The notes under the pieces: generated by a model
The model's database searches: none
Told to the model about the DNA's origin: nothing
Seen by the model: only the letters and a program-made list of their open reading frames with translations
Shown here: positions 3,971 to 56,718 of the stretch, in pieces
How the letters are laid out: each line of letters starts with the position of its first letter
Position numbering within the stretch: the first letter of the stretch is position 1
Made by a program: the position numbers and the translations under genes
DNA from: Candidatus Omnitrophota bacterium
GTDB lineage: Bacteria > Omnitrophota > Gorgyraeia > Zapsychrales > JANLHA01
Length of the DNA: 64,000 nt
Reading direction: 5' to 3'
Assembly (NCBI GenBank): GCA_022711395.1
Contig: JAKLFA010000006.1
Coordinates: 154-64,153, forward strand

Positions 3971-4029
3971 AGACCTGATAAATGGAGTAAGGGAGGGTTT
4001 GTTCAAAATTTGTGTACCGGTTCCTTGAG

Positions 4030-4295
4030 GCGAAAGCTCAAGGATCAAAAGGGAAAGCTTCCTTCGCTTGGCGAGGGGACCTCTTAAAAAGGATTTTTTA
4101 GGGGGCGGTGAAACGCCGGCACGGTCCCGCCACTGTAAGGGTTTAGTTAAACCCAAGTCAGAACGCCTGCCGGTATTTTCAGTATTTGTGTGCTGCGACG
4201 GACAGCGCAAATACGAACATAGATTTGGGATCAAGAGCTACGGGTGCAATCCCAATCGGACAAGACAATGTCTGGTTGGGATTTTTTATTTTTGC
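4030..4295 (+). promoter_or_regulatory. Cobalamin (AdoCbl) riboswitch with a terminator-type expression platform, in the leader of the TonB-dependent receptor gene
   Basis: Conserved core AAGGGAAAGC ... GGTGAAACGCCGGCACGGTCCCGCCACTGTAAGGG, including the B12 box GCCACTG at 4129-4135. Downstream hairpin aatcccaa...ttgggatt followed by TTTTTTATTTTT (4248-4294), and a possible antiterminator partner tttgggat at 4224-4231. Confidence 0.7.
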
Positions 4296-4344: not shown

Positions 4345-6342
4345 ATGAACAGAAGGTTACGTGTGTTTATGATCATGAGCATTCTCTCAGCTTTTGGTCT
4401 GCCTGCCGCTGCGCAAGACATGGAATTGGACCGAATCGTGGTCACGGCAAGCCGAATAGCCCAGATGGATGATCAGTTGACATCCAGCGTTTCGGTGATC
4501 AGTGAAGAGGATATTGCTTCTTCAAGCGCCCGCACGGTGGCGGATATTCTTCAGGACCGTCTGGGGCTCAACATTTACGACAAGAGCTCCCCCAAGACGT
4601 CCCTGGTGGATATCCGGGGGTTCAATGACACGGCCACGATGAACGTCCTGGTTCTGGTCAACGGACGCAAGGTCAATTCGATCGACCTTTCGGGAGCGGA
4701 TTATCTTCAGGTGCCGCTGGAGGCTGTGCGGCGTATTGAAGTGGTGCGCGGCGCGGCTTCGGTGCTTTACGGGGACAATGCCGTCGGAGGGGTTATTAAC
4801 ATCATCACCAAAGAGGGCAAGGGGCCGTTATCGCTCCGCCTGGGTTCGGAGTACGGGAGCTTTGACCAGCGGCGGTCGGATGCGGAGATCTCCGGAAGCC
4901 ATAAGGACCTCTCGTATTATCTGTATTCCTCCTACGCGGACGCCAGGGGTTACCGGCAAAACAGCGATGTCCTCGACAAGGACTACAACGGCCGGCTGGG
5001 CTGGGCGCTGACCGATATCCTGAATGTGGAATTGATGAGCTCCTGGCACGAGGATGATTATGGTCTGCCGGGTGGCTTGAGCGACACGGAGCTTCAGACG
5101 CTGGGGCGCCGGGGTTCAGCTGATGATCAGGATTTCGGATCGACCAAGGACCGCAATGTCCATCTGCGATTCGACGCGACCCCCTGGCCGCAAGACCTGG
5201 ACCTGGGCCATCTGGTCCTGGACGTATCCTACCGCAACCGTGATTCCTACGCGGAATTCGCGGCGTATGATTTCGGGACCAAGCGCATGATCGACACGCT
5301 GGGCATGAACGCCAAATACACTTTGAATCAGCAGGTGCTTGGTCATGATGTGGACCTTGTCACCGGGGTGGACCTTTATGATGTCAAGAACGATATCTGG
5401 GGCAGCGGGTCCAACAGTGATGATATCACGATCAGTAAGGACGAATTCGGTGTTTATGTTTTTGGTGAGGTTGAATTGCTGGCCGACACGTTCATCAACG
5501 CGGGGACGCGTTATCAACGGGCGGATTACACGTTCGATCAACGCAGCGGGACGGCGAATTATGAAAAACAGAAGGCTGATGAGCAGGTCTCCATGCTGGG
5601 GGCCAAATATGAATACGCTCCGGGTTCCAACATCCATGCGGGGGTGGAGCAGACGTTCCGGTTTTTGGCGACCGATGAATGGTACGATACCTGGTCAGGA
5701 CTTAATACCGGCCTGGACCAGCAGACCGGGATCCAGTATGAGGTGGGGATCAAACACAACTTCAGGAACACGACGACCGTTGGGATCACGCCTTATTGGA
5801 TCGAGACCGAGGATGAGATTTTTTTTGATCCCAAGTCCGGATTTTTCGGGTCGAACAGCAACTATGACACGACCCGGAGGCTGGGGGTGGAATGTGAGCA
5901 GCGGACAAATCTTTTGAAGATCGTTGAGGTGGACGTTCTCAACCGCTGGGAGCTTTTCAGCAGTTATGTCTATCAGCGGCCGGAATTCTTTGATGGGCCC
6001 AATGACGGTAAGCTCATCCCCATGGTCCCGGAAAACCAGTGGACAGCCGGGACATCGTTCGGTTTTTGGGACCATTATGACTTTTCGATTTCCGGGCGCT
6101 ACACGGGATCACGTTTTGCCATTAATGACACGCTTAATGAGACGGCGAAAGTGAAGTCCCATATCGTAATGGACACCAAGCTATCTTACCGCCGGCTGGA
6201 CTATCAGGTCTATCTGGCCGTAGACAACGTGCTGGGGGAACAATATTATTCCTATGTCAGCAAGGCGGTCGGCAGTTTTGTGAAGGACTATTATCCGGCG
6301 CCGGAAAGAACGTTTCGGGCGGGCATGAGCGTTTTGTTCTAA
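4345..6342 (+). CDS. TonB-dependent outer-membrane receptor, likely BtuB-like cobalamin/corrinoid uptake
   Basis: Signal peptide; TonB box DRIVVTASR; plug-domain motifs (VLVLVNGRKVNS, RIEVVRGAASVLYGDNAVGGVINIITK); long beta-barrel; C-terminal aromatic residue F. A cobalamin riboswitch lies upstream. Confidence 0.85.
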   Translation: MNRRLRVFMIMSILSAFGLPAAAQDMELDRIVVTASRIAQMDDQLTSSVSVISEEDIASSSARTVADILQDRLGLNIYDKSSPKTSLVDIRGFNDTATMNVLVLVNGRKVNSIDLSGADYLQVPLEAVRRIEVVRGAASVLYGDNAVGGVINIITKEGKGPLSLRLGSEYGSFDQRRSDAEISGSHKDLSYYLYSSYADARGYRQNSDVLDKDYNGRLGWALTDILNVELMSSWHEDDYGLPGGLSDTELQTLGRRGSADDQDFGSTKDRNVHLRFDATPWPQDLDLGHLVLDVSYRNRDSYAEFAAYDFGTKRMIDTLGMNAKYTLNQQVLGHDVDLVTGVDLYDVKNDIWGSGSNSDDITISKDEFGVYVFGEVELLADTFINAGTRYQRADYTFDQRSGTANYEKQKADEQVSMLGAKYEYAPGSNIHAGVEQTFRFLATDEWYDTWSGLNTGLDQQTGIQYEVGIKHNFRNTTTVGITPYWIETEDEIFFDPKSGFFGSNSNYDTTRRLGVECEQRTNLLKIVEVDVLNRWELFSSYVYQRPEFFDGPNDGKLIPMVPENQWTAGTSFGFWDHYDFSISGRYTGSRFAINDTLNETAKVKSHIVMDTKLSYRRLDYQVYLAVDNVLGEQYYSYVSKAVGSFVKDYYPAPERTFRAGMSVLF

Positions 6343-46394: not shown

Positions 46395-47789
46395 TCAACG
46401 GTCCTGGGGCCGGTCGATCGGGATGCCTTCGGCTTCAGCAAGCTGAAGCATTTTTTCCAGGACATCATCGCAGAACAGATACTGCAGATAGGTCGTGTTT
46501 TCCTCGAGGCTGGTCATGTTGGATTTGATGAATTGATCATGCAGGGAGATCTTTCCCCTGGACTCAAGATACTTGAGTTTCTCGATGATCCGGGGATATT
46601 CGTTCAAACTTTTGCCGTAAAGCAGTTCAATCGCGCGCAGAGAGACCTTTCCCATGGAAAGGCTGGTGAAAAGATAATGCACGATCTCTTTCTGAGTGTC
46701 GAGTTTGTAGCCTTTTTCAATCGGGAGTTTTCCTTCCCCAAGAGAGCGGATATATTCATCCACGTCGCCATGGTTAGAATAACGGTAGGCGCCTGTGATG
46801 TGTCCGTTGGCGAAGCCGCCGATGGCGATAAAGCTGCTGTTGAACTGGATCGCGTCCGATAACTGGATGTTGCGCGCCGCGGGGTCCAGGGAACGCTGGT
46901 GCCCGCCGGTGGCGTGATAGCCGTGCTCCCGCAACAGCGGCCTGGACAGCAGGTCCATCTCTTTGATGCGTTGTTCGTCTTCCGTTGAAAGCCGGTTGCC
47001 TGTTTTGGAAAAGACCGTGGTGATCATGGGCTTAAAGCGGTTGGTATGAAGGACATCCGGCTTCCAGGAAATGAGGGTCTTTAAATCGTTCATGAATGAA
47101 TCCACGGTCTGCCCGGGAATGCCCATCATAAGGTCAAGGCTGATGAACTTGATCTGGTGCTTGCGGGCCAGGTCAAAAATGTGTTTGACCTGCCGGGTGT
47201 CCTGGGGACGGTTGTTGATCTTCAACACAGCCGGGTCCAGGCTCTGCACCCCGAGCCCCAGGCGGTCGACGCCGTTTTTTTTGAGGATCTTGATCTTTCC
47301 CTCATTGAGAGTGGCCGGCCCTGTTTCAAAGGAGAATTGGACAGCTTTTTTTAGATTAAGCCCTGCGTGCAGGCGGTCAAAAAGTTCCTGCAACTGGCCT
47401 TCATTAAGCAAGGACGGAGTCCCGCCCGCCAGATAAACGGATTTGAACGGGGTCTTGTTAAGCAGGTGTGCGTAGATATCGATCTCTTTTAAGAGGGCGT
47501 CAAAATAATCATTGAGCTTGTGAACGGTCAAGTGCGAGGCGTGGCAGCAGAAAACGCACCGGTGCTGGCAGAAGGGGATGTTCAGATAAAGTCCGAGAGT
47601 TTTTTTAAAGATGTCGGAAGGGGAGCTGCGGATCTTTTCACGGAAGTCCGCTTCATCGATATTGTTCTGCCAGAGAAGGCGCGGCGGGTAATCCAGCGGA
47701 AGGCGGTTGGCCTCGCCCAGAAAATACGGGATGATATTGGCGAAGAGATGATCGTAGTTCTTTAAAGGTTTTTGCGGCGCGCCGGCCAT
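46395..47789 (-). CDS. HemN-like radical SAM enzyme (coproporphyrinogen-dehydrogenase family, or class C radical SAM methyltransferase / HemW-like)
   Basis: YLNIPFCQHRCVFCC (CxxxCxxC), GGTPS motif, HemN_C-like C-terminus; paralogous to the next gene. Confidence 0.8.
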   Translation of the reverse strand: MAGAPQKPLKNYDHLFANIIPYFLGEANRLPLDYPPRLLWQNNIDEADFREKIRSSPSDIFKKTLGLYLNIPFCQHRCVFCCHASHLTVHKLNDYFDALLKEIDIYAHLLNKTPFKSVYLAGGTPSLLNEGQLQELFDRLHAGLNLKKAVQFSFETGPATLNEGKIKILKKNGVDRLGLGVQSLDPAVLKINNRPQDTRQVKHIFDLARKHQIKFISLDLMMGIPGQTVDSFMNDLKTLISWKPDVLHTNRFKPMITTVFSKTGNRLSTEDEQRIKEMDLLSRPLLREHGYHATGGHQRSLDPAARNIQLSDAIQFNSSFIAIGGFANGHITGAYRYSNHGDVDEYIRSLGEGKLPIEKGYKLDTQKEIVHYLFTSLSMGKVSLRAIELLYGKSLNEYPRIIEKLKYLESRGKISLHDQFIKSNMTSLEENTTYLQYLFCDDVLEKMLQLAEAEGIPIDRPQDR

Positions 47790-47810
47790 GTCCTGTGCCC
47801 TCTTGTTCGG

Positions 47811-49169
47811 TTATTCGTTTTCTTTTATGAAGTTAAATATCCTTTGCCGGATATCATCGCAGAACAGATATTGGCAATATGTCAGCCATTCTTCCTGTGA
47901 AGCCATCAGGGATTTGATGTAATGTTCGCGGATCAGGAGCTTGCCGCGGGATTCAAGATAACGCAGCCTTTCAAGGATCGGGGTGAATGAATCCAGGGGG
48001 GCGTCGTAAAGCATCTCGACCGCGCGTTTGGAAACGGCCCCTTTCCAGAGCTGATTGAACAGATACGAGACGAGCTCTTTGGTCATGTCAAGGCGGATGC
48101 CGCGTTCGACCGGTAATCGTCCTTTTTTGACCGACTGGATGTATTCGTTCAAATTTCCGGAATTGGCGTAGCGCCAGGAGCCGGTCAAGTGGCTGTGGGA
48201 AAAAGGGCCCAGGCCGATGAAACTGCTGTTGAATTTAAAGGCGTCGGTAACGCCCAGGGTGTAGACTCCTGGTTTTAGCATGGCGGTGGAGTTGCCGGGT
48301 TTGTGCAGGTATCCGGCGAGGCTGAAAAGCTCCGCGGCCCGGGCGGCCATTTCTGCGATCCGTTTCAGGTCCGCGTCCGAGAATCGGTTGCCCATCCGGT
48401 AGAAAGATGTCAGAGATGAAGGGATGAACTCATAGACCGTGATCGAGGCCGGTTTCCATGACAGGACCTCGGTCAGGTCCGCGACAAAACTTTCCACGCT
48501 TTGCCCCGGCAGGCCGGTGATAAGGTCGATCTGGATGTTATCGATCCCCGCCGCGCGGATCGCGGCATGCATGTTTTTGATGTGGTCTTTCTCCTGGGTC
48601 CGATTGACCGTCCGCAGGACGTCCGGATCCATGCTCTGGATGCCGAGCGAGATCCTGTTGACGCCGAGATCACGCAAGATCCTTATTTTTCTTTCATTGA
48701 GGCTCGCGGGATGGGCTTCAAAGGAGATCTGCAAGGCGTTTTTTAAATTCAATTTTTGATGAAGGTTTTCCAGGAATTCCTTGAGTTGGCGCTCATCAAG
48801 GATCGAAGGCGTCCCGCCGCCGATCATGACCGAGCGAAGCGGCGCATGATCAAGCAGGCCGGCATAGAGGTCCATTTCTCCATATAAAGCCTCCAGAAAA
48901 TCATCGGTTCGTTTGGTGTCGATGTAGAACGGATATCGGCAGAAGGAGCAGCGCTCAGAACAGAACGGGATGTGGATATACAGCCCCAGCAGTTTGTTGA
49001 AGATGCTGTCCGGCCGTGCCTTGATGTCCGCCTGGATTTTGGCCTGGTCGATCCCGCTGTCCCAAAAGACGAACGGGGGATAGTCGATCATGGCCTTTCG
49101 GGAATCCCGGTTCATCCGACGGGCGAATTCGGCAAAGGTATGGTCATGGTTGTTGAAGTGCTCATTCAT
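47811..49169 (-). CDS. HemN-like radical SAM enzyme, paralog 2
   Basis: YIHIPFCSERCSFCRY, GGGTPS; the C-terminus YLESRGKLLI...YLFCDDI aligns with the paralog. Confidence 0.8.
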   Translation of the reverse strand: MNEHFNNHDHTFAEFARRMNRDSRKAMIDYPPFVFWDSGIDQAKIQADIKARPDSIFNKLLGLYIHIPFCSERCSFCRYPFYIDTKRTDDFLEALYGEMDLYAGLLDHAPLRSVMIGGGTPSILDERQLKEFLENLHQKLNLKNALQISFEAHPASLNERKIRILRDLGVNRISLGIQSMDPDVLRTVNRTQEKDHIKNMHAAIRAAGIDNIQIDLITGLPGQSVESFVADLTEVLSWKPASITVYEFIPSSLTSFYRMGNRFSDADLKRIAEMAARAAELFSLAGYLHKPGNSTAMLKPGVYTLGVTDAFKFNSSFIGLGPFSHSHLTGSWRYANSGNLNEYIQSVKKGRLPVERGIRLDMTKELVSYLFNQLWKGAVSKRAVEMLYDAPLDSFTPILERLRYLESRGKLLIREHYIKSLMASQEEWLTYCQYLFCDDIRQRIFNFIKENE

Positions 49170-49284
49170 AAACAGATCACGCTCGGATGTTTTGATCGTT
49201 TCACATAGTATAGCATAAGCGGTCCTGTTCCGAAGCGGCCCTTCAAATAAAGTCGGGCGGCCGTTCTGATCCGTAAAATGGGCC

Positions 49285-49313
49285 TTGTTGCAAAATGGAA
49301 GACGTAATATAAT
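49285..49313 (+). promoter_or_regulatory. Sigma-70-like promoter (TTGTTG-17-TATAAT) for the plus-strand radical SAM operon
   Basis: TTGTTG at 49285-49290 and TATAAT at 49308-49313 with a 17-nt spacer in the divergent intergenic region. Confidence 0.45.
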
Positions 49314-49350
49314 GCTTACGATTTAACATTCAACCCGTGGACGGGGCATT

Positions 49351-50451
49351 TTGAGTTCAAATCCAACCATTCAGAACAAAAGTGTTTTTCAGGCCAAGAT
49401 CGCTCTCACGAACAATTGCGTGCTGAGGTGCGAGTATTGTTTTGTCGAGAAACAGAAGCAGCTGAATGTCATGAGCGTCGGCGTCGCCCGGCAGGCCGTT
49501 GATCTGATCCTGGATAACGGGGAAGGCCAGAAGATCATCAAGGTCTATGGCGGAGAGCCGTTATTGTGTTTTGACCTTGTCAGGGAGATCACGGCGTATG
49601 TGAGGAAAAACGAGAAGGCAGAGGCTCCGGCGCAGATGAGTCTGTGCACCAACGCTGTCCTGCTTAACGAGGACCATTTGCGTTTTTTGAAGGAAAATCG
49701 TTATCAGCTGGCGATCAGTTTTGACGGATTAAAAGACACGCAGGACAAGCACAGGAAATTTCCTGACGGAAAAGGGACTTTTGACATCGTCACAAAGAAG
49801 TTCCCGTTGATCTTTCAGGTCATGGGGGCTAAGGATGTCGCCGCCAATTTATCGATCGTCCCTTCTGAAGCGAAGAACCTGTTTGATAATTTTGCTTATA
49901 TCCTTTCTTCGGGCTTCGCAACCGTAAATTTTGAGCCGGTGTTCGGATACAGGAGCTGGCAAAGGGAAGACCAGGAAACGTTCGTCGGCCAGATGAAGAA
50001 GATCATCAAATTTGTCCATGCCAATCTTCTGGAAGGGAAGTTTTTCTTCCTGGCGACGATCAACAGGGAGCTGAAATACAGGACGCTATCGAAGTTCGTC
50101 ACGGACCCCTGCCCTTTCGTGCAGTGCCTGGAAGTCCAGCCGGACGGGGACCTCACGCTGGTGCCGTTCATCCGCGATTTCGATAAGAACGTCGGGAACC
50201 AGTGTTTCGTAGGCAATCTTGAAAAGGGCGTCTTCAACGAAAAGTACCTGGTCTGCCGTTATTCCCCGGGGGATATCTGCCGGCAGTGCGTGAAGGAAAG
50301 CTTTTTTCAGGATGACAGCGCCGCCGGGAAGATCGTGACCTTGCGTAACATGTTTTCGATCGAATACGCCGAGCTGCTGATCAAGCTCGCGCAAAAGGAT
50401 GAACGGGTCCGTTCGTATATTGAACAGGCCAAAGGGCATATTTGTTTTTAA
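49351..50451 (+). CDS. Radical SAM enzyme with a C-terminal SPASM/twitch Cys-rich domain (anSME/NirJ-AhbC/D-like)
   Basis: TNNCVLRCEYCFVEK (CxxxCxxC), GGEPLL, C-terminal Cys cluster (CPFVQC, CRQC). The TTG start at 49351 is the only in-frame start before the motif. Confidence 0.75.
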   Translation: MSSNPTIQNKSVFQAKIALTNNCVLRCEYCFVEKQKQLNVMSVGVARQAVDLILDNGEGQKIIKVYGGEPLLCFDLVREITAYVRKNEKAEAPAQMSLCTNAVLLNEDHLRFLKENRYQLAISFDGLKDTQDKHRKFPDGKGTFDIVTKKFPLIFQVMGAKDVAANLSIVPSEAKNLFDNFAYILSSGFATVNFEPVFGYRSWQREDQETFVGQMKKIIKFVHANLLEGKFFFLATINRELKYRTLSKFVTDPCPFVQCLEVQPDGDLTLVPFIRDFDKNVGNQCFVGNLEKGVFNEKYLVCRYSPGDICRQCVKESFFQDDSAAGKIVTLRNMFSIEYAELLIKLAQKDERVRSYIEQAKGHICF

Positions 50452-50470
50452 CTTTTAGGATGCGGCCGGC

Positions 50471-51553
50471 ATGATTGAACGTTTATTGAACAAAAAAGTT
50501 TATAAGCTGCGGATCCTGACAACAACGAAGTGCAACTGCCGCTGTTCGTATTGCTTTGTTGAAAAAAAGGATGAGTTCGCCGACTATGATGTTCTGGAGA
50601 AAGGCGTGCGTTTTTTGGTCGACAGTGCCGGCGATAAAAAGCTCCTCACGCTCTACGGCGGCGAACCGCTCTTTGCTTATGAGAATGTTCAGCGGGTGAT
50701 CCCGTTCGCCAGGGAATACGCTATCAAGAAGCAAAAACGGCTGGTCATGGCGTTCGTGAGCAATTCGCTGCTGCTGAAAGAGGAGCATCTGAGGTTTTTG
50801 CAGAAGCAGGGCGTTCATTACATCACGTCATTGATCGGGTCCAAGAAATATCATGACGAAAAACGGCGCCCTGTGGACGGTAAAAGCTCTTATGACGCGG
50901 TGGCGGAAAAGGTCCCTTTGATCCAAAAGTACACGAAGGTGGAAGAGGCCGGCGTTTGTTTTTGTGTTTTTCCCGACCAGATCGAGGCGCTGTTCGATAA
51001 CTTCAAACATGTTTTGTCATTGGGATTTCGAAACCTGAACATGGAACCGATCCTGGATTACAAGCCCTGGACGAAGAGGGAAGACGAAATATTTTTGGCC
51101 CATTGCAAAAAGATCATCGTGGAGCTTTTTGCAAGCATCAAGCGGCGGGATTTTATCTATCTGCGCCCGATCAGCCTGGAGCTCGCCTATAACAAGCTTT
51201 CGGACAAGTTCGCCTCAAGCTGCCTTTTTAATTTCGGATGCGTCCTGTATCCGGACGGATCCTTGGTCATGACGCCTTGGGTCCCCAAAGAGACGCATGC
51301 CGTCGCCAATCTGCTGAAAGATGAGGTCTATCGTTTTGCGGACTGCTGCTTTCCGGAAAGCGGCGGGCTTTGCAAGGACTGCACCGGCCATTATTTTCCG
51401 AGGTGGTCGGATAAGCAGAAACAGCTGATGGCCCACCGGGTCTACATGATCTATCATAAGTTCTGCCTGGAGGCGGCAAATCTTATACGGAAAAAAGCGA
51501 AGACCGATCCTTTATATAAGGAATATCTGGGAAAAGTGCTGGCCCATACCTGA
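50471..51553 (+). CDS. Radical SAM/SPASM-domain enzyme, paralog of the previous gene
   Basis: TTKCNCRCSYCFVEK, GGEPLF, C-terminal CLFNFGC...CCFPESGGLCKDCTGH. Confidence 0.75.
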   Translation: MIERLLNKKVYKLRILTTTKCNCRCSYCFVEKKDEFADYDVLEKGVRFLVDSAGDKKLLTLYGGEPLFAYENVQRVIPFAREYAIKKQKRLVMAFVSNSLLLKEEHLRFLQKQGVHYITSLIGSKKYHDEKRRPVDGKSSYDAVAEKVPLIQKYTKVEEAGVCFCVFPDQIEALFDNFKHVLSLGFRNLNMEPILDYKPWTKREDEIFLAHCKKIIVELFASIKRRDFIYLRPISLELAYNKLSDKFASSCLFNFGCVLYPDGSLVMTPWVPKETHAVANLLKDEVYRFADCCFPESGGLCKDCTGHYFPRWSDKQKQLMAHRVYMIYHKFCLEAANLIRKKAKTDPLYKEYLGKVLAHT

Positions 51554-51598
51554 CGGCAGTCCATACGGAGACGCCTGCCTTATTCGGAAGCCTGTGAC

Positions 51599-52468
51599 AT
51601 GAACGTCCTTTTAAGAATAACCGACCAATGCAATCAGGATTGCTGCTTTTGTAATGTTTCATCTGATGAGAGCGTGCCGCTGGATGAGGCCATGCGGCGC
51701 GTCCGCCAGGCGAAAGACCTGCGCACTCTTTCGATCAGCGGCGGGGAGCCGACTTTAAATAAGGGACTTCTGGAACTGGTCCGGGAGGCCAAAAAGAATC
51801 CCGGCATCCAGTTCGTGAGCCTGCAGACCAACGCGGTCACGGCCGCGTCCTCGGATTATGCCCGGATGTTAAAGGAGGCTGGTCTGGATGAGGCGTTTGT
51901 CGCGCTTCACTCCCACCAGGAAAAACTGTCGAACGTGCTGACCGGTTCTCAACTTTGGCAAAAGACCGTTTCCGGAATTCAAAACCTGACGGCCGCCGGA
52001 ATAAAGGTCGTGATCAACACGGTCATCAATAAGGCGACGTATGAACAGCTTCCGGAATTCTGCCTGTTCGTAGGCAGGACCTTTCCGGATGTTAAGGAGA
52101 TCTGTTTTTCATTCATCCAGCCCCACGGACGGGCATGGAAGAACCGTTCGGCGCTCATCCCGCGTTACAGTGAGGTCGTGCCATTTTTGAAAAAGGCATT
52201 GGAATTTTGCGATGGCTGCGGGATCGCCTACTGCAACCCGTATTGCGGTTTTCCACTATGTTTGTTCCCGGCGCCCAAAAAATGTTCCAGCGAGTTTTTG
52301 GATTCTCCCAGGTCCTCTTCTGAAAAGGAGGGGGTTTCACTCGTAAAAAGGGACAAGGTCCAGGGGCCTGCTTGCCAGCACTGCGCAGAAAAGACCCGTT
52401 GCAACGGCGTGTGGAAAAAATACGCCGAGATCCATGGGTTTTCCGAACTGAAACCGTTCAAAAAATGA
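51599..52468 (+). CDS. Small radical SAM enzyme (289 aa) with a C-terminal auxiliary Cys cluster
   Basis: ITDQCNQDCCFC (C-x3-C-x2-C), SGGEPTL, C-terminal CNPYCGFPLC...CQHCAEKTRCNG. Confidence 0.7.
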   Translation: MNVLLRITDQCNQDCCFCNVSSDESVPLDEAMRRVRQAKDLRTLSISGGEPTLNKGLLELVREAKKNPGIQFVSLQTNAVTAASSDYARMLKEAGLDEAFVALHSHQEKLSNVLTGSQLWQKTVSGIQNLTAAGIKVVINTVINKATYEQLPEFCLFVGRTFPDVKEICFSFIQPHGRAWKNRSALIPRYSEVVPFLKKALEFCDGCGIAYCNPYCGFPLCLFPAPKKCSSEFLDSPRSSSEKEGVSLVKRDKVQGPACQHCAEKTRCNGVWKKYAEIHGFSELKPFKK

Positions 52469-52482
52469 AATTCAAGAGTTGG

Positions 52483-52523
52483 TTGACAGGGGAAGTTTTT
52501 TTTGTATAATGCACATATGTGCA
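52483..52523 (+). promoter_or_regulatory. Promoter TTGACA-16-TATAAT immediately followed by a 14-bp perfect palindrome TGCACATATGTGCA (candidate operator)
   Basis: -35 at 52483-52488, -10 at 52505-52510, palindrome at 52510-52523, then RBS aaggag and the DUF134 start. Confidence 0.5.
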
Positions 52524-52542
52524 AAACTATTAAGGAGTGTCT

Positions 52543-52839
52543 ATGCGTCCTAAAAAGACACGATGGGTAAAATGCGAGCCGGGAGAACGGTGTTTTCGTC
52601 CGCAAGGGGTTCGGGTGAAGGACCTGCAGGGGGTGGACCTGACGGTTGATGAATTTGAAGCGGTAAGGCTGGCGGACCATGAACGGCTCACGCAGGAGCA
52701 GATCGCTTTACAAATGAAGATCCATCGCTCCACGGTTTCAAGGATCCTGACCTCGGCCCACGGGAAAATTGCGGATGCGTTAGTGAATAAAAAGGCCGTC
52801 AAGGTTGAGGGCGGTTGTTGTAAATTCAGGGGGGCGTAA
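52543..52839 (+). CDS. DUF134 (UPF0251) predicted DNA-binding protein with N-terminal C-x5-C and C-terminal GGCC; first gene of the ars cassette
   Basis: CEPGERC ... [37 protein letters not shown] (sigma-70 region-4-like HTH) ... VEGGCC. It ends 1 nt before the ACR3 start. Confidence 0.75.
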
Positions 52840-52840
52840 T

Positions 52841-54007
52841 ATGCAGGAAAGAAATATGTCCGTTTTTGAACGGTATTTAACGCTATGGGTTGTTGCGTGC
52901 ATCGCGGCGGGAATATTTTTGGGCAAGGCCGCGCCCGGGGTGGCCAAGTCACTGGACGGATTTTCGATATTCGTCAACGGTGCGCCGGTGGTGTCCATTC
53001 CGATCGCGGTCTGTTTGTTTTTTATGATGTACCCGATCATGGTTAAGATCGATTTCGCTGAAGTCATTAAGGCGGGAAAATCCCCTAAGCCTGTCTGGCT
53101 GACCTTGTTTGTCAATTGGGCGGTCAAGCCGTTTACTATGTATGCGATCGCCTTGTTTTTTCTCGGGTTTTTATTTCGGGGTTTAATTGGCGTTGACGCT
53201 GTTGACTTTGTGAAACTTCCGCCGGGCTCGGATTGGGCGGTCGGCTCTGTCCACGGCTCCGGGACGGTTATCCTGCTGGAAGGCTTAAAAATGCTTCAGG
53301 TCCCTTTGTGGCGCAGTTATTTTGCAGGATGCATTTTGCTGGGCATCGCGCCGTGCACGGCCATGGTTTTGGTTTGGGGGTTTTTAGCTAAAGGCAATGA
53401 CGGACATACTTTGGTGATGGTCGCCATCAATTCGCTGACCATGCTGTTGCTCTACGGCGTCTTGGGTGGATTTCTTTTAGGGGTGGGCAAAATGCCGGTT
53501 CCCTGGGAGGCGCTTGTATTGTCAATCGCGATCTATGTCGCGCTTCCGCTGGTGGCCGGGTATCTTTCGAGAAAGTGGATCGTCTCCCGCAAAGGCATTG
53601 ATTGGTTCAATGAAAAATTTCTGCATGTCCTTTCGCCGGTCTCGATTATCGCGCTGTTGTTTACGCTGGTGCTTTTATTTTCGTTTAAGGGTGAGGTCAT
53701 TCTTGCACAGCCGCTCACGATCCTGTGGATCGCGATCCCGCTGTTTATTCAGACCTGTTTGATTTTTGCCATTACCTACTGGCTGGCGAAAAAATTGCGT
53801 TTGAGTTATGGAGACGCGGCGCCCAGCGCCATGGTAGGTGCGAGTAATCACTTTGAGGTCGCGATCGCCACTGCTACAATGCTGTTTGGGTTATCATCCG
53901 GCGCTGCCCTGGCAACGGTGGTGGGTGTTTTGATCGAGGTGCCGGTCATGCTGATGCTGGTCAAGATCTGTTTGAAGACGCAGGGGATGTTCCAGTATAA
54001 TGAATAA
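52841..54007 (+). CDS. Arsenite efflux permease (ACR3 family)
   Basis: FERYLTLWV start, 10 TM helices, ACR3 hallmarks ([11 protein letters not shown] with the conserved Cys, GYLSRKW). Confidence 0.85.
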
Positions 54008-54039
54008 AATTGCAGGGGAAAATCAAGGAGACGGCGGAT

Positions 54040-54240
54040 ATGAAAATACTGGCCCATTTTATTATTTTCTTTGTGTTCGTTTTTGGCATTCACCGTTATC
54101 TGGTGCAAAAATCAGAAAAATGTGAAAATAAAGAGTGTGAATGTCCGATCAGAGAGAACCTGAGGGAGGGGTATCTGGTCGTTGGGGCGCTGTCATTGGC
54201 GGCGCTGTGCCTGATGGCCTTGATCGAGGTGGCGTTTTAA
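54040..54240 (+). CDS. Small two-TM membrane protein with a cytoplasmic C-x5-C-x-C motif
   Basis: 66-aa ORF with an aaggag RBS 9 nt upstream; [10 protein letters not shown] lies between two hydrophobic helices. Confidence 0.4.
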
Positions 54241-54257
54241 AACGCAAGGAGTTCAGG

Positions 54258-54689
54258 ATGAAAGAGAGGACAAGGGTTTTATTCGTTTGCATCCATAATT
54301 CCGCGCGCAGCCAGATGGCAGAGGCATTTTTGAAAGAGATCGCGTCCGACAGGTTCGAGGTGGATAGCGCCGGACTTGAGCCGGGACAGCTCAATCCAGC
54401 CGTGGTTGAGGTGATGAAAGAATCCGGGATTGATCTCTCGGGGAAAAAGACCCAGAGCGTTCAAAGCTTGCTTGATCAGGGAAAACGATTTGATTATGTG
54501 TTTACGGTCTGTGATGAAACGCAGGCTGAACGATGCCCGATCTTCCCCGGCGGGGGAAAACGGGTCCATATCGGGTTTCCGGACCCGTCGTCTTTTCAAG
54601 GCACTCATGAGGAAAAACTGCAAAAGACCAGGGAAGTGCGCGACATGATCAAGACCAAGATCCAGCAGTGGGCGGATCTTGCGCGGTAG
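54258..54689 (+). CDS. arsC: Arsenate reductase, LMW-PTP family (thioredoxin-coupled ArsC)
   Basis: [16 protein letters not shown] (C-x5-R P-loop) plus downstream Cys pair [11 protein letters not shown]. Confidence 0.85.
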
Positions 54690-54735
54690 TTGTTGACCCA
54701 TTCGATCTTCTATTCGTTCCGATAAAAATTTTCAC

Positions 54736-54780
54736 TGGACAAAAATACAGGCAAACGATATTATTGGCATATGCCAATAA
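54736..54780 (+). promoter_or_regulatory. Promoter TGGACA-17-TATTAT followed by a 20-bp perfect palindrome TTATTGGCATATGCCAATAA (candidate operator)
   Basis: Palindrome at 54761-54780 overlaps the -10, then RBS aaggagg and the second DUF134 gene. The CATATG centre is shared with the 52510 palindrome. Confidence 0.45.
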
Positions 54781-54794
54781 TCAAGGAGGCCGCT

Positions 54795-55094
54795 ATGCCC
54801 AGGCCATGTCGATATCGAAATGTCCGCTGTTCACCGGATATCAATTATTTTAAGCCGCGCGGGATCCCGTTGGACCTGCTGGAAGAGGTCCAGCTCACGC
54901 TGGATGAGCTTGAGGCGATCCGGCTGGCGGATTTTGACGATCTGTATCAAGCCGAAGCCGCCGATAAAATGAACATTTCCCGCCAGACGTTCGGCAACAT
55001 TATCAAGAGCGCGCATAAGAAGCTCGCGGAGGCTCTTTTGCAGGGAAAGGCCTTAAAGATCGAGGGTGGGTGCGTAAAAAAGGTCGCGCGATGA
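54795..55094 (+). CDS. DUF134 (UPF0251) predicted DNA-binding protein, paralog 2
   Basis: PCRYRNVRC ... LTLDELEAIRLADFDDLYQAEAADKMNISRQTFGNII ... IEGGCVKK. Confidence 0.75.
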   Translation: MPRPCRYRNVRCSPDINYFKPRGIPLDLLEEVQLTLDELEAIRLADFDDLYQAEAADKMNISRQTFGNIIKSAHKKLAEALLQGKALKIEGGCVKKVAR

Positions 55095-55678
55095 AAGATA
55101 TTCTAAAACGGGAAGAACGCAGGCTCAGGCAGCTAACGAAGCTGGGTTATGACATCAAGCGTTCCAGGGAATTTATCTTTAAAAAAGCGGGCCTTGATCA
55201 CGGATCGATCCTGGAGGTGGGAACCGGAAAAGGCCATTTCGCTTTGTTGTTGGCAAATAAGGGGTTTGTTTTAACGTCGATCGATCTGGACCCGGGGGCT
55301 CACCGCGTCGCCAGGGAGTTTCTAAAGGCCGATCGCCTGCAGCGCAAGGTCCGGCTCAAGAGGATGGACGCGGAAAAACTTGATTTCCCTTCACGGTCGT
55401 TTGATCAGGTTGTTTCGGTCAATTTCATGCACCATGCGCAATATCCCAAAAGATGTTTGGCGGAAATGGTAAGGGTCGCAAGAGCCAAGATCGTCATCGC
55501 CGACATCAACAAAAAAGGCGAGCTGGTCTTGGAACGGATGCACAAAAAAGAAGGGCATGATCATCCCCGTTCAGACATAAGTTTTCAGCAGATGAGGTCG
55601 TTTTTAGAGGAAAAGGGTTTTTCAGTGAGAACGTTTAAGGGTTTTTGTCAAACAATGCTGGTCGCAGAAAAGGAGTGA
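55091..55678 (+). CDS. Class I SAM-dependent methyltransferase
   Basis: ILEVGTGKGHFALLLA (motif I), methyltransferase type 11/12-like fold; the start overlaps the DUF134 stop (ATGA). Confidence 0.75.
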   Translation: MKDILKREERRLRQLTKLGYDIKRSREFIFKKAGLDHGSILEVGTGKGHFALLLANKGFVLTSIDLDPGAHRVAREFLKADRLQRKVRLKRMDAEKLDFPSRSFDQVVSVNFMHHAQYPKRCLAEMVRVARAKIVIADINKKGELVLERMHKKEGHDHPRSDISFQQMRSFLEEKGFSVRTFKGFCQTMLVAEKE

Positions 55679-55681
55679 ATA

Positions 55682-56047
55682 ATGAAGATCTGTATTCCGA
55701 CAGCAACGGATGAAGGGTTAGGCGCTCAGGTATTTGGCCATTTCGGCAGCGCCCCGTATTTTACCATTGTGGACGTCGAGAGCGGAGAGATCCGCATGGT
55801 GAACAACTCCAACGCGCACCATTCGCACGGGATGTGCCATCCTTTGGGGGCGTTGAGCGGCTTATCGATCGATGCCGTGATCTGTCAGGGGATGGGCGCG
55901 CGTGCCGTGCAGAAGCTCAATGAAGCCGGCATCAGGGCCTTTCAGGCGCAGGGACAGACAGTGGCAGAGCTTATCGACCGTTGCAAAGCCGAAGAACTTT
56001 CGGAGATCACTCCGGCCGGAGCATGCACCCAGCATGGATGCCATTAG
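55682..56047 (+). CDS. Dinitrogenase FeMo-cofactor-binding domain protein (NifX/NafY/NifB-C-terminal-like, PF02579)
   Basis: MKICIPT...GHFGSAPYFTIVDVESGEI...VICQGMGARAVQKLNEAGIRAF matches the FeMo-co domain pattern. Confidence 0.75.
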   Translation: MKICIPTATDEGLGAQVFGHFGSAPYFTIVDVESGEIRMVNNSNAHHSHGMCHPLGALSGLSIDAVICQGMGARAVQKLNEAGIRAFQAQGQTVAELIDRCKAEELSEITPAGACTQHGCH

Positions 56048-56157
56048 ATCGTGAAGGCCCGGCAGGCTTTTTAAAACCCTATTTTTTCCGGATTTGAGTT
56101 CCCTCTTTCGGCAGGACGATATACAATAAACGGCATGCCTTATCAGAAAGGGCGCTC

Positions 56158-56718
56158 ATGAATTTTTTTACAGTCTTTTTTGTCGCGGTGGCCCTGGCCA
56201 TGGACGCGTTTGCCGTCTCGGTGGCGTCCAGCGTGCTTATTTGCAAACACAGATTGCGGAGGGCCTTTACGTTCGGCCTGATGTTCGGCGGGTTTCAGAT
56301 GATCATGCCGGTGGTGGGCTGGGCGGCGGGCAGGACATTCCGTTCTTTGATCACGGGAGTGGATCATTGGATCGCATTTGGTCTGCTTTTTCTGATCGGC
56401 CTAAAGATGATCTGGGAGGCGTTCAAGATCGAGCGGATCGAACAATCGTGCTGTAAACTGACGTGGCTGGTTTTACTGGGACTGTCTTTGGCCACCAGCA
56501 TGGACGCACTGGCCACAGGGATCAGTTTTGCTTTTTTGGAGGTTTCTATTGTCCTGCCGGTTGCGGTGATCGGCGCGGTCACGTTTGTCTTATCGTTTAC
56601 TGGCGTTGTCCTGGGCAGCCGTCTGGGAGGAAAATTTGAACAGACAGCCGAAATCTTAGGCGGTGCAATCTTGATCGCCATAGGTTTTCAGATCCTCATT
56701 AAGCATTTGTTGGGGTAA
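56158..56718 (+). CDS. mntP: Manganese efflux pump MntP
   Basis: FFVAVALAMDAFAVSVA and the duplicated motif in the second half (SMDALATGISFA). Confidence 0.85.
   Translation: MNFFTVFFVAVALAMDAFAVSVASSVLICKHRLRRAFTFGLMFGGFQMIMPVVGWAAGRTFRSLITGVDHWIAFGLLFLIGLKMIWEAFKIERIEQSCCKLTWLVLLGLSLATSMDALATGISFAFLEVSIVLPVAVIGAVTFVLSFTGVVLGSRLGGKFEQTAEILGGAILIAIGFQILIKHLLG

Follow-up and report, generated by a model that had tools for sequence, protein, structure and literature searches.

Organization of the locus

The subject of this work is an arsenic resistance (ars) locus of Candidatus Omnitrophota in which a protein of the DUF134 family may stand in for the usual ArsR repressor. The locus lies at positions 52483-56047 of a 64,000-nt stretch of a Candidatus Omnitrophota contig, hereafter the window. 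It comprises two units on the + strand, each headed by its own promoter and each starting with a DUF134 gene (Table 1). This arrangement had been proposed in an initial annotation, and all features were found to lie no more than a few bases from the positions given there. The two DUF134 paralogs, referred to below as DUF134-1 and DUF134-2, are 47% identical, and both pass the PF02001 gathering threshold of 27 bits.

The first unit encodes DUF134-1, the arsenite permease ACR3, a small membrane protein and the arsenate reductase ArsC. A single nucleotide separates the TAA stop codon of DUF134-1 from the ATG of ACR3 (52841), which implies co-transcription. ACR3 scores 381.7 bits over residues 6-377 with TIGR00832, above the equivalog cutoff of 282.8 bits. 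The 66-residue membrane protein has no Pfam or NCBIfam match. Its homolog (53% identity, with the KC-x-NKECECP motif kept) lies between ACR3 and ArsC in another locus (L011, 9626-9856), and the protein may be an unrecognized component of ars operons. ArsC reaches 118.7 bits with TIGR02691 (thioredoxin-coupled, pI258 type), under the equivalog cutoff of 174.3. By eye, C11 in CIHNSARS as well as C84 and C92 are present; the C84-C92 spacing is one residue longer than in pI258. Orthologs of ArsC recur as the last gene of DUF134-headed ars operons. In the second unit, the end of DUF134-2 overlaps the start of a methyltransferase gene in an ATGA sequence, and a NifX-like protein follows, with 82 bits on PF02579 (threshold 26.3). 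The same protein and locus, identical, are found on an 80.7-kb JGI contig (Ga0116241_10000597) and in NCBI metagenome-assembled genomes.

The initial annotation had noted that the cassette lacks ArsR. No ArsR/SmtB homolog was found anywhere in the 64-kb window by tblastn or by a small ArsR hidden Markov model (HMM) run over six frames, nor did precomputed Pfam annotation reveal an ArsR-type protein within 10 kb on either side of the locus; thus, no ArsR that would explain regulation was found nearby. The same HMM does detect ArsR-like genes in five of the loci fetched for comparison (L042, L074, L112, L118 and, weakly, L038). It misses DUF134-1, and HTH_5 and HTH_20 match neither DUF134-1 nor DUF134-2. 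In two further loci, L207 and L209, no HTH_5 or HTH_20 protein is present within 9 kb (precomputed Pfam annotation). An open reading frame (ORF) of 195 residues found in L038 and L022 (cluster c34), a weak match to the ArsR HMM, was considered as an ArsR fusion and rejected, as by eye it looks like a protein of a winged-helix plus nucleotidyltransferase type.

Table 1. Features of the locus and of comparison loci. Positions are those of the window or of the numbered locus.
Feature	Source	Position	Strand	Description
ars-operon promoter	window	52483-52510	+	-35 TTGACA 52483-52488, 16-nt spacer, -10 TATAAT 52505-52510
Operator 1 (predicted)	window	52507-52526	.	20-mer TAATGCACATATGTGCAAAA holding the perfect 14-bp palindrome TGCACATATGTGCA at 52510-52523
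DUF134-1	window	52543-52839	+	98 aa; PF02001, E 9e-22, 78 bits over residues 2-92
ACR3 arsenite efflux permease	window	52841-54007	+	388 aa; TIGR00832; Pfam SBF
Small protein with two transmembrane segments	window	54040-54240	+	66 aa; C-x5-C-x-C; motif KC-x-NKECECP
Arsenate reductase ArsC, low-molecular-weight phosphatase type	window	54258-54689	+	143 aa; PF01451 (LMWPc), E 7.5e-22
Second-unit promoter	window	54736-54764	+	-35 TGGACA, 17-nt spacer, -10 TATTAT; 10/12 consensus matches
Operator 2 (predicted)	window	54761-54780	.	perfect 20-bp palindrome TTATTGGCATATGCCAATAA; overlaps -10 box and predicted transcription start
DUF134-2	window	54795-55094	+	99 aa; PF02001, E 2.6e-24, 86 bits over residues 3-95
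Class I S-adenosylmethionine-dependent methyltransferase	window	55091-55678	+	195 aa; Pfam Methyltransf_11/25
NifX/NifB-like Nitro_FeMo-Co protein	window	55682-56047	+	121 aa; PF02579, E 3.9e-23
Unit 2 near ars operon	L136	1068-5382
Unit 2 near ars operon	L025	12735-13570
Unit 2 near ars operon	L032	2498-3333
Unit 2 near ars operon	L055	4350-5643
Peptide of ~50 aa with CC pairs	L209	9318-9473
Peptide of ~50 aa with CC pairs	L025, L027, L028, L032, L033, L039, L048
Palindrome before non-DUF134 genes	metagenome: L097, L103, L106, L121, L122, L125-L127, L134, L135, L145, L154, L170, L173, L188, L193, L194, L198, L205

A palindrome in the promoters of DUF134 genes

In a consensus scan the ars-operon promoter matches the σ70 consensus at 12 of 12 positions, and its TTGACA-16/17-TATAAT layout is found again in orthologous loci. 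The σ70-like promoters of both units run into CATATG-centered palindromes at 52510-52523 and 54761-54780, in agreement with the initial annotation. Both palindromes start within the −10 hexamer, and a search for further copies found each of them only once in the window. Operator 1 covers the last four nucleotides of the −10 box plus the predicted transcription start. For the 20-mer TTATTGGCATATGCCAATAA, zero matches are expected and none was ever attained in shuffled sequences. The 14-mer TGCACATATGTGCA alone is not significant in the window (1.55 matches expected at ≤3 mismatches); it gains significance because it is conserved in orthologous promoters. Judging from the geometry, transcription would start 6-8 nt past the −10 box, at the center of each palindrome, which favors occlusion of RNA polymerase and speaks against an RNA hairpin.

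For comparison, 80 genomic loci encoding DUF134 relatives were fetched (888 kb in total) and their upstream regions were read. In nearly every bacterial locus, across many bacterial phyla, a 20-bp palindrome, TTATGnnCATATGnnCATAA, is found upstream of the DUF134 gene. It directly follows or overlaps the −10 box, precedes the ribosome-binding site and ends 11-20 nt before the start codon. In loci encoding DUF134-1-type proteins, the palindrome is located 11-20 nt before the start codon in 46 of 48 cases. Among the 57 20-mers of the 888 kb that have a central CATATG and complementarity in at least 5 of 7 flank pairs, 51 are located upstream of a DUF134 gene at a distance of 120 nt or less. Inside DUF134-headed ars operons, neither a further promoter nor a further operator was detected.

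The search was also run from the operator side. Metagenome contigs contain 122 exact sites of the pattern TWATGMACATATGTKCATWA; a DUF134 ORF starts within 250 nt of 85 of them, and 105 adjoin DUF134, DUF5320-like, NifX-like or Mrp-like ORFs. The DUF5320 and Nitro_FeMo-Co identities of operator-adjacent genes were confirmed by Pfam. Generic repeats, the reading that the initial annotation had set against its own, can be rejected: the palindromes are unique in the window and elsewhere specific to promoters of the DUF134 regulon. On sequence grounds, then, the palindrome is the putative operator of the whole DUF134 family and defines a small regulon.

The same 20-bp palindrome was seen directly upstream of genes other than DUF134, namely those for DUF5320 proteins, NifX-like Nitro_FeMo-Co proteins, P-loop ATPases of the Mrp/NBP35 type and small zinc-ribbon-like proteins with four cysteines (Table 1), which suggests a family-wide DUF134 regulon. 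Copies of the consensus operator at L070 3317-3336 and L109 808-827 precede ORFs containing …YLDCVPCLLRQ… and …YRCIYCLMR…, respectively; these resemble DUF89 by eye and may be further members of the regulon.

No upstream palindrome was found for archaeal DUF134 genes (helix SQPTFHRL; L058, L059, L064, L069, L071, L074, L079, L084 and L085). These genes sit directly after a coiled-coil, DUF5320-like ORF ending in …KRLxELK. This position makes it probable that they are internal genes of operons whose control site is different or distant.

Co-variation of recognition helix and half-site

The sequence of the predicted recognition helix changes together with that of the operator half-site. An HRST[IV]SR helix goes with the half-site ATGCAC (25/25), SRPTFSR with ATGAAC (28/28) and SRQTFGN with ATT[G/A]GC (11/11), while SR[QP]TFGR is found with ATG[A/G]GC. 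The mutual information between helix and half-site is 1.38 bits, and 2000 permutations reach at most 0.52. Accordingly, orthologs with the HRSTxSR helix share a conserved ATGCACATATGTGCAT that lies 11-20 nt before the start codon, and ATT[G/A]GCATATGC[T/C]AAT is conserved upstream of orthologs with the SRQTFGNII helix. The window paralogs obey these rules, DUF134-1 having its helix paired with TGCAC and DUF134-2 (ISRQTFGNII) with TTGGC. Since their helices pair with different half-sites, the two proteins should not bind each other's operators. The co-variation and the promoters of DUF134-1-type genes support the initial view of DUF134 proteins as probable autoregulated DNA-binding proteins acting at CATATG operators.

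A cysteine signature marks DUF134 proteins that head ars operons

DUF134-1 contains four cysteines, Cys11, Cys17, Cys92 and Cys93. Their conservation was assessed in an alignment of 163 non-identical close relatives (the DUF134-1 clade) and in 152 representatives of the whole DUF134 family. In the clade, C11 is present in 163 proteins, C17 in 157, C92 in 155 and C93 in 162; in the family set, the same columns hold cysteine in just 27, 10, 13 and 13 proteins. The GGCC motif is nearly restricted to the ars-linked clade. Another cysteine, C22, is found in 129 of 163 clade members, while DUF134-1 of the window has glycine at this position. DUF134-2 contains Cys5, Cys12 and Cys92; among its orthologs C92 is not conserved, and an N-terminal cysteine alone is common. 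The conserved cysteine pairs initially ascribed to both paralogs are thus borne out for the DUF134-1 clade, where the cysteines are clearly kept among homologs, only in part for DUF134-2, and not for the family as a whole.

The signature C-x5-C-F plus GGCC goes together with ars genes. In 46 of 51 loci with the signature, ars genes follow on the same strand within 6 kb, compared with 7 of 69 DUF134 loci without it (Fisher p = 1e-19). Six of these seven encode clade variants short of one cysteine; in the remaining one, L101, the ORF was mistrimmed. Conversely, four of the signature loci without counted ars genes (L009, L033, L050 and L052) carry a divergent ArsP_1-type permease, and the fifth, L163, has an ArsP-like match at 28% identity. 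The adjacency of DUF134 and ars genes seen in the window is therefore a recurrent feature of the clade.

The recurrent operon consists of DUF134, sometimes a 52-residue CC-rich peptide, ArsP_1, ArsM, ArsE, ArsF, ArsG, ACR3 and ArsC. Neighbors in clade loci score 258 bits for ArsP_1 (PF03773), 360 bits for ArsM (NF008823, cutoff 263) and 274 bits for ArsG (NF040495, cutoff 200); ArsE is a thioredoxin-like protein. The downstream content is variable and DUF134 is always first. According to precomputed annotation, L207 has a bare DUF134 and ACR3 pair amid housekeeping genes and L209 a seven-gene version. That the regulator and operator stay constant while the genes behind them vary points to a functional link. 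Clade loci come mostly from Omnitrophota, and some from Auribacterota, Goldiibacteriota, Elusimicrobiales, Thermodesulfovibrionia and bins labeled Planctomycetia.

Several of these ars operons encode, between DUF134 and ArsP_1, a lysine-rich peptide of about 50 residues with two CC pairs (…KPCCDSKDKEKSCCS; Table 1), for which no family match was found. Other DUF134 subfamilies have C-terminal extensions (P0170, P0188, P0192, P0230 and P0206), some of them zinc-ribbon-like tails of the CxxC…CxxC type and one a fused NifX-like domain. Such extensions suggest a shared DNA-binding core that carries a modular sensor region.

Predicted structure of DUF134-1

An AlphaFold2 model of DUF134-1 was built from an alignment of 76 sequences (predicted local distance difference test score, pLDDT, 84; predicted template modeling score, pTM, 0.74). 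In the model, helices 35-46, 51-58 and 62-82 form a helix-turn-helix (HTH), which is flanked by predicted strands on the N-terminal (7-9, 30-33) and C-terminal (85-88, 93-95) sides. In fold searches only the HTH core finds matches, to σ70 region 4 and to the DNA-binding domain of DeoR/SorC; the latter, bound to its operator, is 45% identical over 40 residues. No full-length neighbor of DUF134-1 was found in these searches. Sequence comparison with solved structures yielded just weak HTH-level matches, with E-values no better than 0.01, to ParB and DeoR, none of them full-length. Sigma70_r4 scores were 25.1 and 21.6 bits, with a cutoff of 24.1. A protein of 98 residues with a region-4-like HTH only, no region 2 and a conserved site downstream of the −10 box instead of at −35 does not qualify as a σ70 factor.

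The second unit is a general DUF134 module

The initial annotation treated the locus as one seven-gene arsenic cassette. This is not borne out, as the second unit represents a general DUF134/NifX-like module that is common outside ars contexts. In Deltaproteobacteria, Acidobacteria and other bacterial phyla, NifX-like genes come after orthologs of DUF134-2, in no case in an ars context. NifX-like genes are also located near DUF134 in a few archaeal loci (L064, L085), again outside ars contexts. One locus, L055, has DUF134-2, methyltransferase and NifX-like genes in the same order as the window.

The window methyltransferase was considered as ArsM and rejected: ArsM-related models give at most 30 bits, and no NCBIfam model reaches its cutoff. 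NF008823 (cutoff 263) is not among the best 25 of 40 families, the best being unrelated methyltransferases with scores below cutoff.

By sequence, then, the second unit looks like a generic DUF134 module and not like an arsenic function. DUF134-2 with its NifX-like partner is an ordinary example of the generic association of DUF134 (UPF0251, COG1342) with NifX-like, DUF5320 or Mrp-like genes, and has a palindrome of the same class upstream. Compared with such pairs, DUF134-1 stands apart in having ars genes as partners, a cysteine signature of its own and its own half-site.

In other Omnitrophota, a DUF134-2/NifX-like unit is also found within a few kilobases of a DUF134-1-headed ars operon (Table 1); in L136 it comes immediately after ArsG with no change of strand, as in the window. 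This proximity could reflect either function or synteny.

Three further features of the window were recorded. Five successive radical-SAM genes (46395-52468; two on the − and three on the + strand) lie directly upstream of the ars promoter. At 4001-4188 on the + strand there is a riboswitch of the cobalamin type (RF00174, 44.2 bits, gathering threshold 31.5), upstream of an ORF at 4345-6342. Downstream of the locus there is a gene for the manganese exporter MntP (56158-56718); its 110-nt leader (56048-56157) contains no yybP-ykoY manganese riboswitch detectable by Rfam at gathering thresholds.

A model for arsenic-responsive repression

We consider it very probable that DUF134-1 controls the ars operon through the palindrome. 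Our preferred reading, which we hold to be probable, is that DUF134-1 is an autorepressor freed by trivalent arsenic, and that each of the two adjacent units of the locus is regulated by the DUF134 paralog that it encodes. Direct sensing of arsenic by the thiols of DUF134-1, to which the cysteine signature and the gene content point, is slightly favored.

In the first unit DUF134-1 would play the usual role of ArsR. A dimer of DUF134-1 would bind TAATGCACATATGTGCAAAA via its HTH of the σ70-region-4/SorC type and, given the position of the palindrome over the −10 box and the start, would block RNA polymerase. As(III) or methylarsenite would be bound by C11 and C17 in the N-terminal loop together with the vicinal pair C92-C93 at the C-terminus, and also by C22 in most relatives. 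The arsenic-bound repressor would leave DNA, and the operon would be transcribed. Methylated or aromatic trivalent arsenicals are plausible inducers as well, because operons of the relatives carry ArsM, ArsP_1 and ArsEFG. The second unit would be controlled likewise by DUF134-2 through the other half-site, TTGGC instead of TGCAC.

Known ars operons are described as being under the control of ArsR-family repressors with several types of As(III) site (PMC11868830). These three-cysteine sites evolved several times and often include a vicinal pair, as in Cys95/96/102 of AfArsR and Cys15/16/55 of CgArsR (PMC11868830). Like ArsR/SmtB proteins (R773 ArsR, AfArsR, CgArsR, ArArsR), DUF134-1 is encoded first in an ars operon and is about 100 residues long; it has a putative palindromic operator that overlaps the promoter, implying autoregulation, and at least three clade-specific cysteines including a vicinal pair (compare Cys95/96 of AfArsR and Cys15/16 of CgArsR); its release by trivalent arsenic is predicted. 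Unlike them, it belongs to an unrelated family, PF02001. In place of the ArsR winged helix it has a predicted tri-helical HTH of the σ70-region-4/SorC type with flanking N- and C-terminal strands; its cysteines are in terminal loops outside the HTH, and its operator type is TTATG[C/A]ACATATGT[G/T]CATAA. The resemblance to SorC/DeoR, σ70 region 4 and LuxR-GerE HTH proteins covers only about half of DUF134-1, which lacks the SorC sugar-binding domain, σ regions 2 and 3 and a receiver domain.

Alternative explanations

Several points weigh against this model. For some metagenome loci in the co-variation table, the operator pattern was itself the criterion of selection. As the loci are related by phylogeny, the Fisher and permutation statistics overstate independence. 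The N- and C-terminal segments, where the cysteines lie, are modeled with pLDDT of only 63-71, and DUF134-1 of the window, lacking C22, is left with four cysteines only. An ArsR-family gene is present near a few clade loci, L042 (8871-9219), L112 and L118, so that DUF134 and ArsR regulators are not strictly exclusive in ars loci. With 64 kb of the genome seen, an ArsR may be encoded elsewhere in the genome. Finally, by analogy with Rrf2-family proteins, the thiols may hold a cluster instead of arsenic.

The last point leads to the first and main alternative, in which DUF134-1 represses the ars operon without binding arsenic directly. The sensor would be an iron-sulfur (Fe-S) cluster, zinc or a redox disulfide, and induction would be indirect, by cluster damage or thiol stress. 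The Rrf2-family proteins IscR and NsrR are small autoregulated repressors with the Fe-S-binding sensor motif C-x5-C-x5-C, and the C-x5-C-x4-C of most clade members comes close to it. The wider DUF134 family is tied to NifX-like proteins, to Mrp/NBP35-like ATPases with ferredoxin motifs and to DUF5320, suggesting a metal-cofactor theme, and many other DUF134 proteins have N-terminal cysteines or C-terminal zinc-ribbon-like extensions with four cysteines. However, the ars-linked clade has its cysteines at other positions than the remaining DUF134 proteins. A vicinal pair, typical of ArsR As(III) sites (PMC11868830), is unusual for Fe-S ligation. DUF134-1 differs from Rrf2 proteins in fold and family, and combines the N-terminal motif with a C-terminal CC pair; the third cysteine, C22, is dispensable, being absent from the window protein and from 34 of 163 clade members. 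The linked genes, including those for organoarsenicals (ArsM, ArsP_1 and ArsEFG), are all arsenic-specific, and none points to Fe-S or NO. We therefore regard this alternative as unlikely.

A second alternative, that DUF134-1 merely autoregulates or serves another purpose while the ars genes are constitutive or under a remote ArsR, with adjacency inherited as lineage synteny, appears to us improbable. The limited extent of genome seen and the ArsR-like genes in the three loci named above speak for it, as does the origin of most clade loci from related candidate phyla, which deprives the linkage counts of independence. Yet the content of the operons varies from ACR3 alone to a seven-gene arsP-arsM-arsEFG-acr3-arsC set, with DUF134 remaining first and a single operator in the sole promoter. 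In addition, DUF134-1 and ACR3 are separated by only the 1-nt gap, and no inner promoter or operator was detected.

It is very improbable that the palindromes are hairpins of the 5′-leader RNA or restriction-modification sites (CATATG is of NdeI type), or that DUF134 is an activator or σ-like factor: a perfect 20-nt palindrome is able to fold as a hairpin, Sigma70_r4 scores at about the Pfam threshold and the best structural neighbors are σ region 4, but a transcript starting at the center would carry one arm only, the co-variation of half-site and helix does not follow from an RNA hairpin or from a methylase site, the 98-residue protein lacks σ regions 2 and 3, and promoters with 12/12 and 10/12 consensus matches do not look activator-dependent.

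Implications for the DUF134 family

A search of a paper library returned nothing on the function of DUF134, UPF0251, PF02001, COG1342 or DUF5320; one apparent mention of DUF134 (PMC10434189) actually refers to DUF1349. NCBIfam (June 2026) offers only a sub-threshold "hypothetical protein" model for these proteins, and NCBI and JGI name them "DUF134 domain-containing" or "predicted DNA-binding protein (UPF0251 family)". At E ≤ 0.001, a DUF134 search of representative proteins gave 3,235 matches. The ars system as such is an ordinary one. What appears to be undescribed is the family of the regulator, together with its operator and cysteine site.

With evenly balanced confidence, we propose that DUF134 proteins are a widespread family of transcription factors that control their own genes in anaerobic bacteria, with the 20-bp operator TTATGnnCATATGnnCATAA and readable rules linking helix to half-site, and that one of its clades is the first prokaryotic arsenic-responsive ars repressor outside ArsR/SmtB, with a three- or four-thiolate As(III)/methylarsenite (MAs(III)) site that evolved independently out of N-terminal cysteines and a CC pair at the C-terminus. 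The prediction is cheap to test, because the protein, the promoter and the candidate ligand are all defined. If true, it would provide DUF134 with its first function, an operator motif and candidate specificity residues, and the long-unexplained DUF134/NifX-like/DUF5320/Mrp-like neighborhood would become testable as a regulon. It would also offer a new scaffold for biosensors of arsenic and organoarsenicals. A second, unrelated family of ars repressors would represent another convergent evolution of arsenic sensing.

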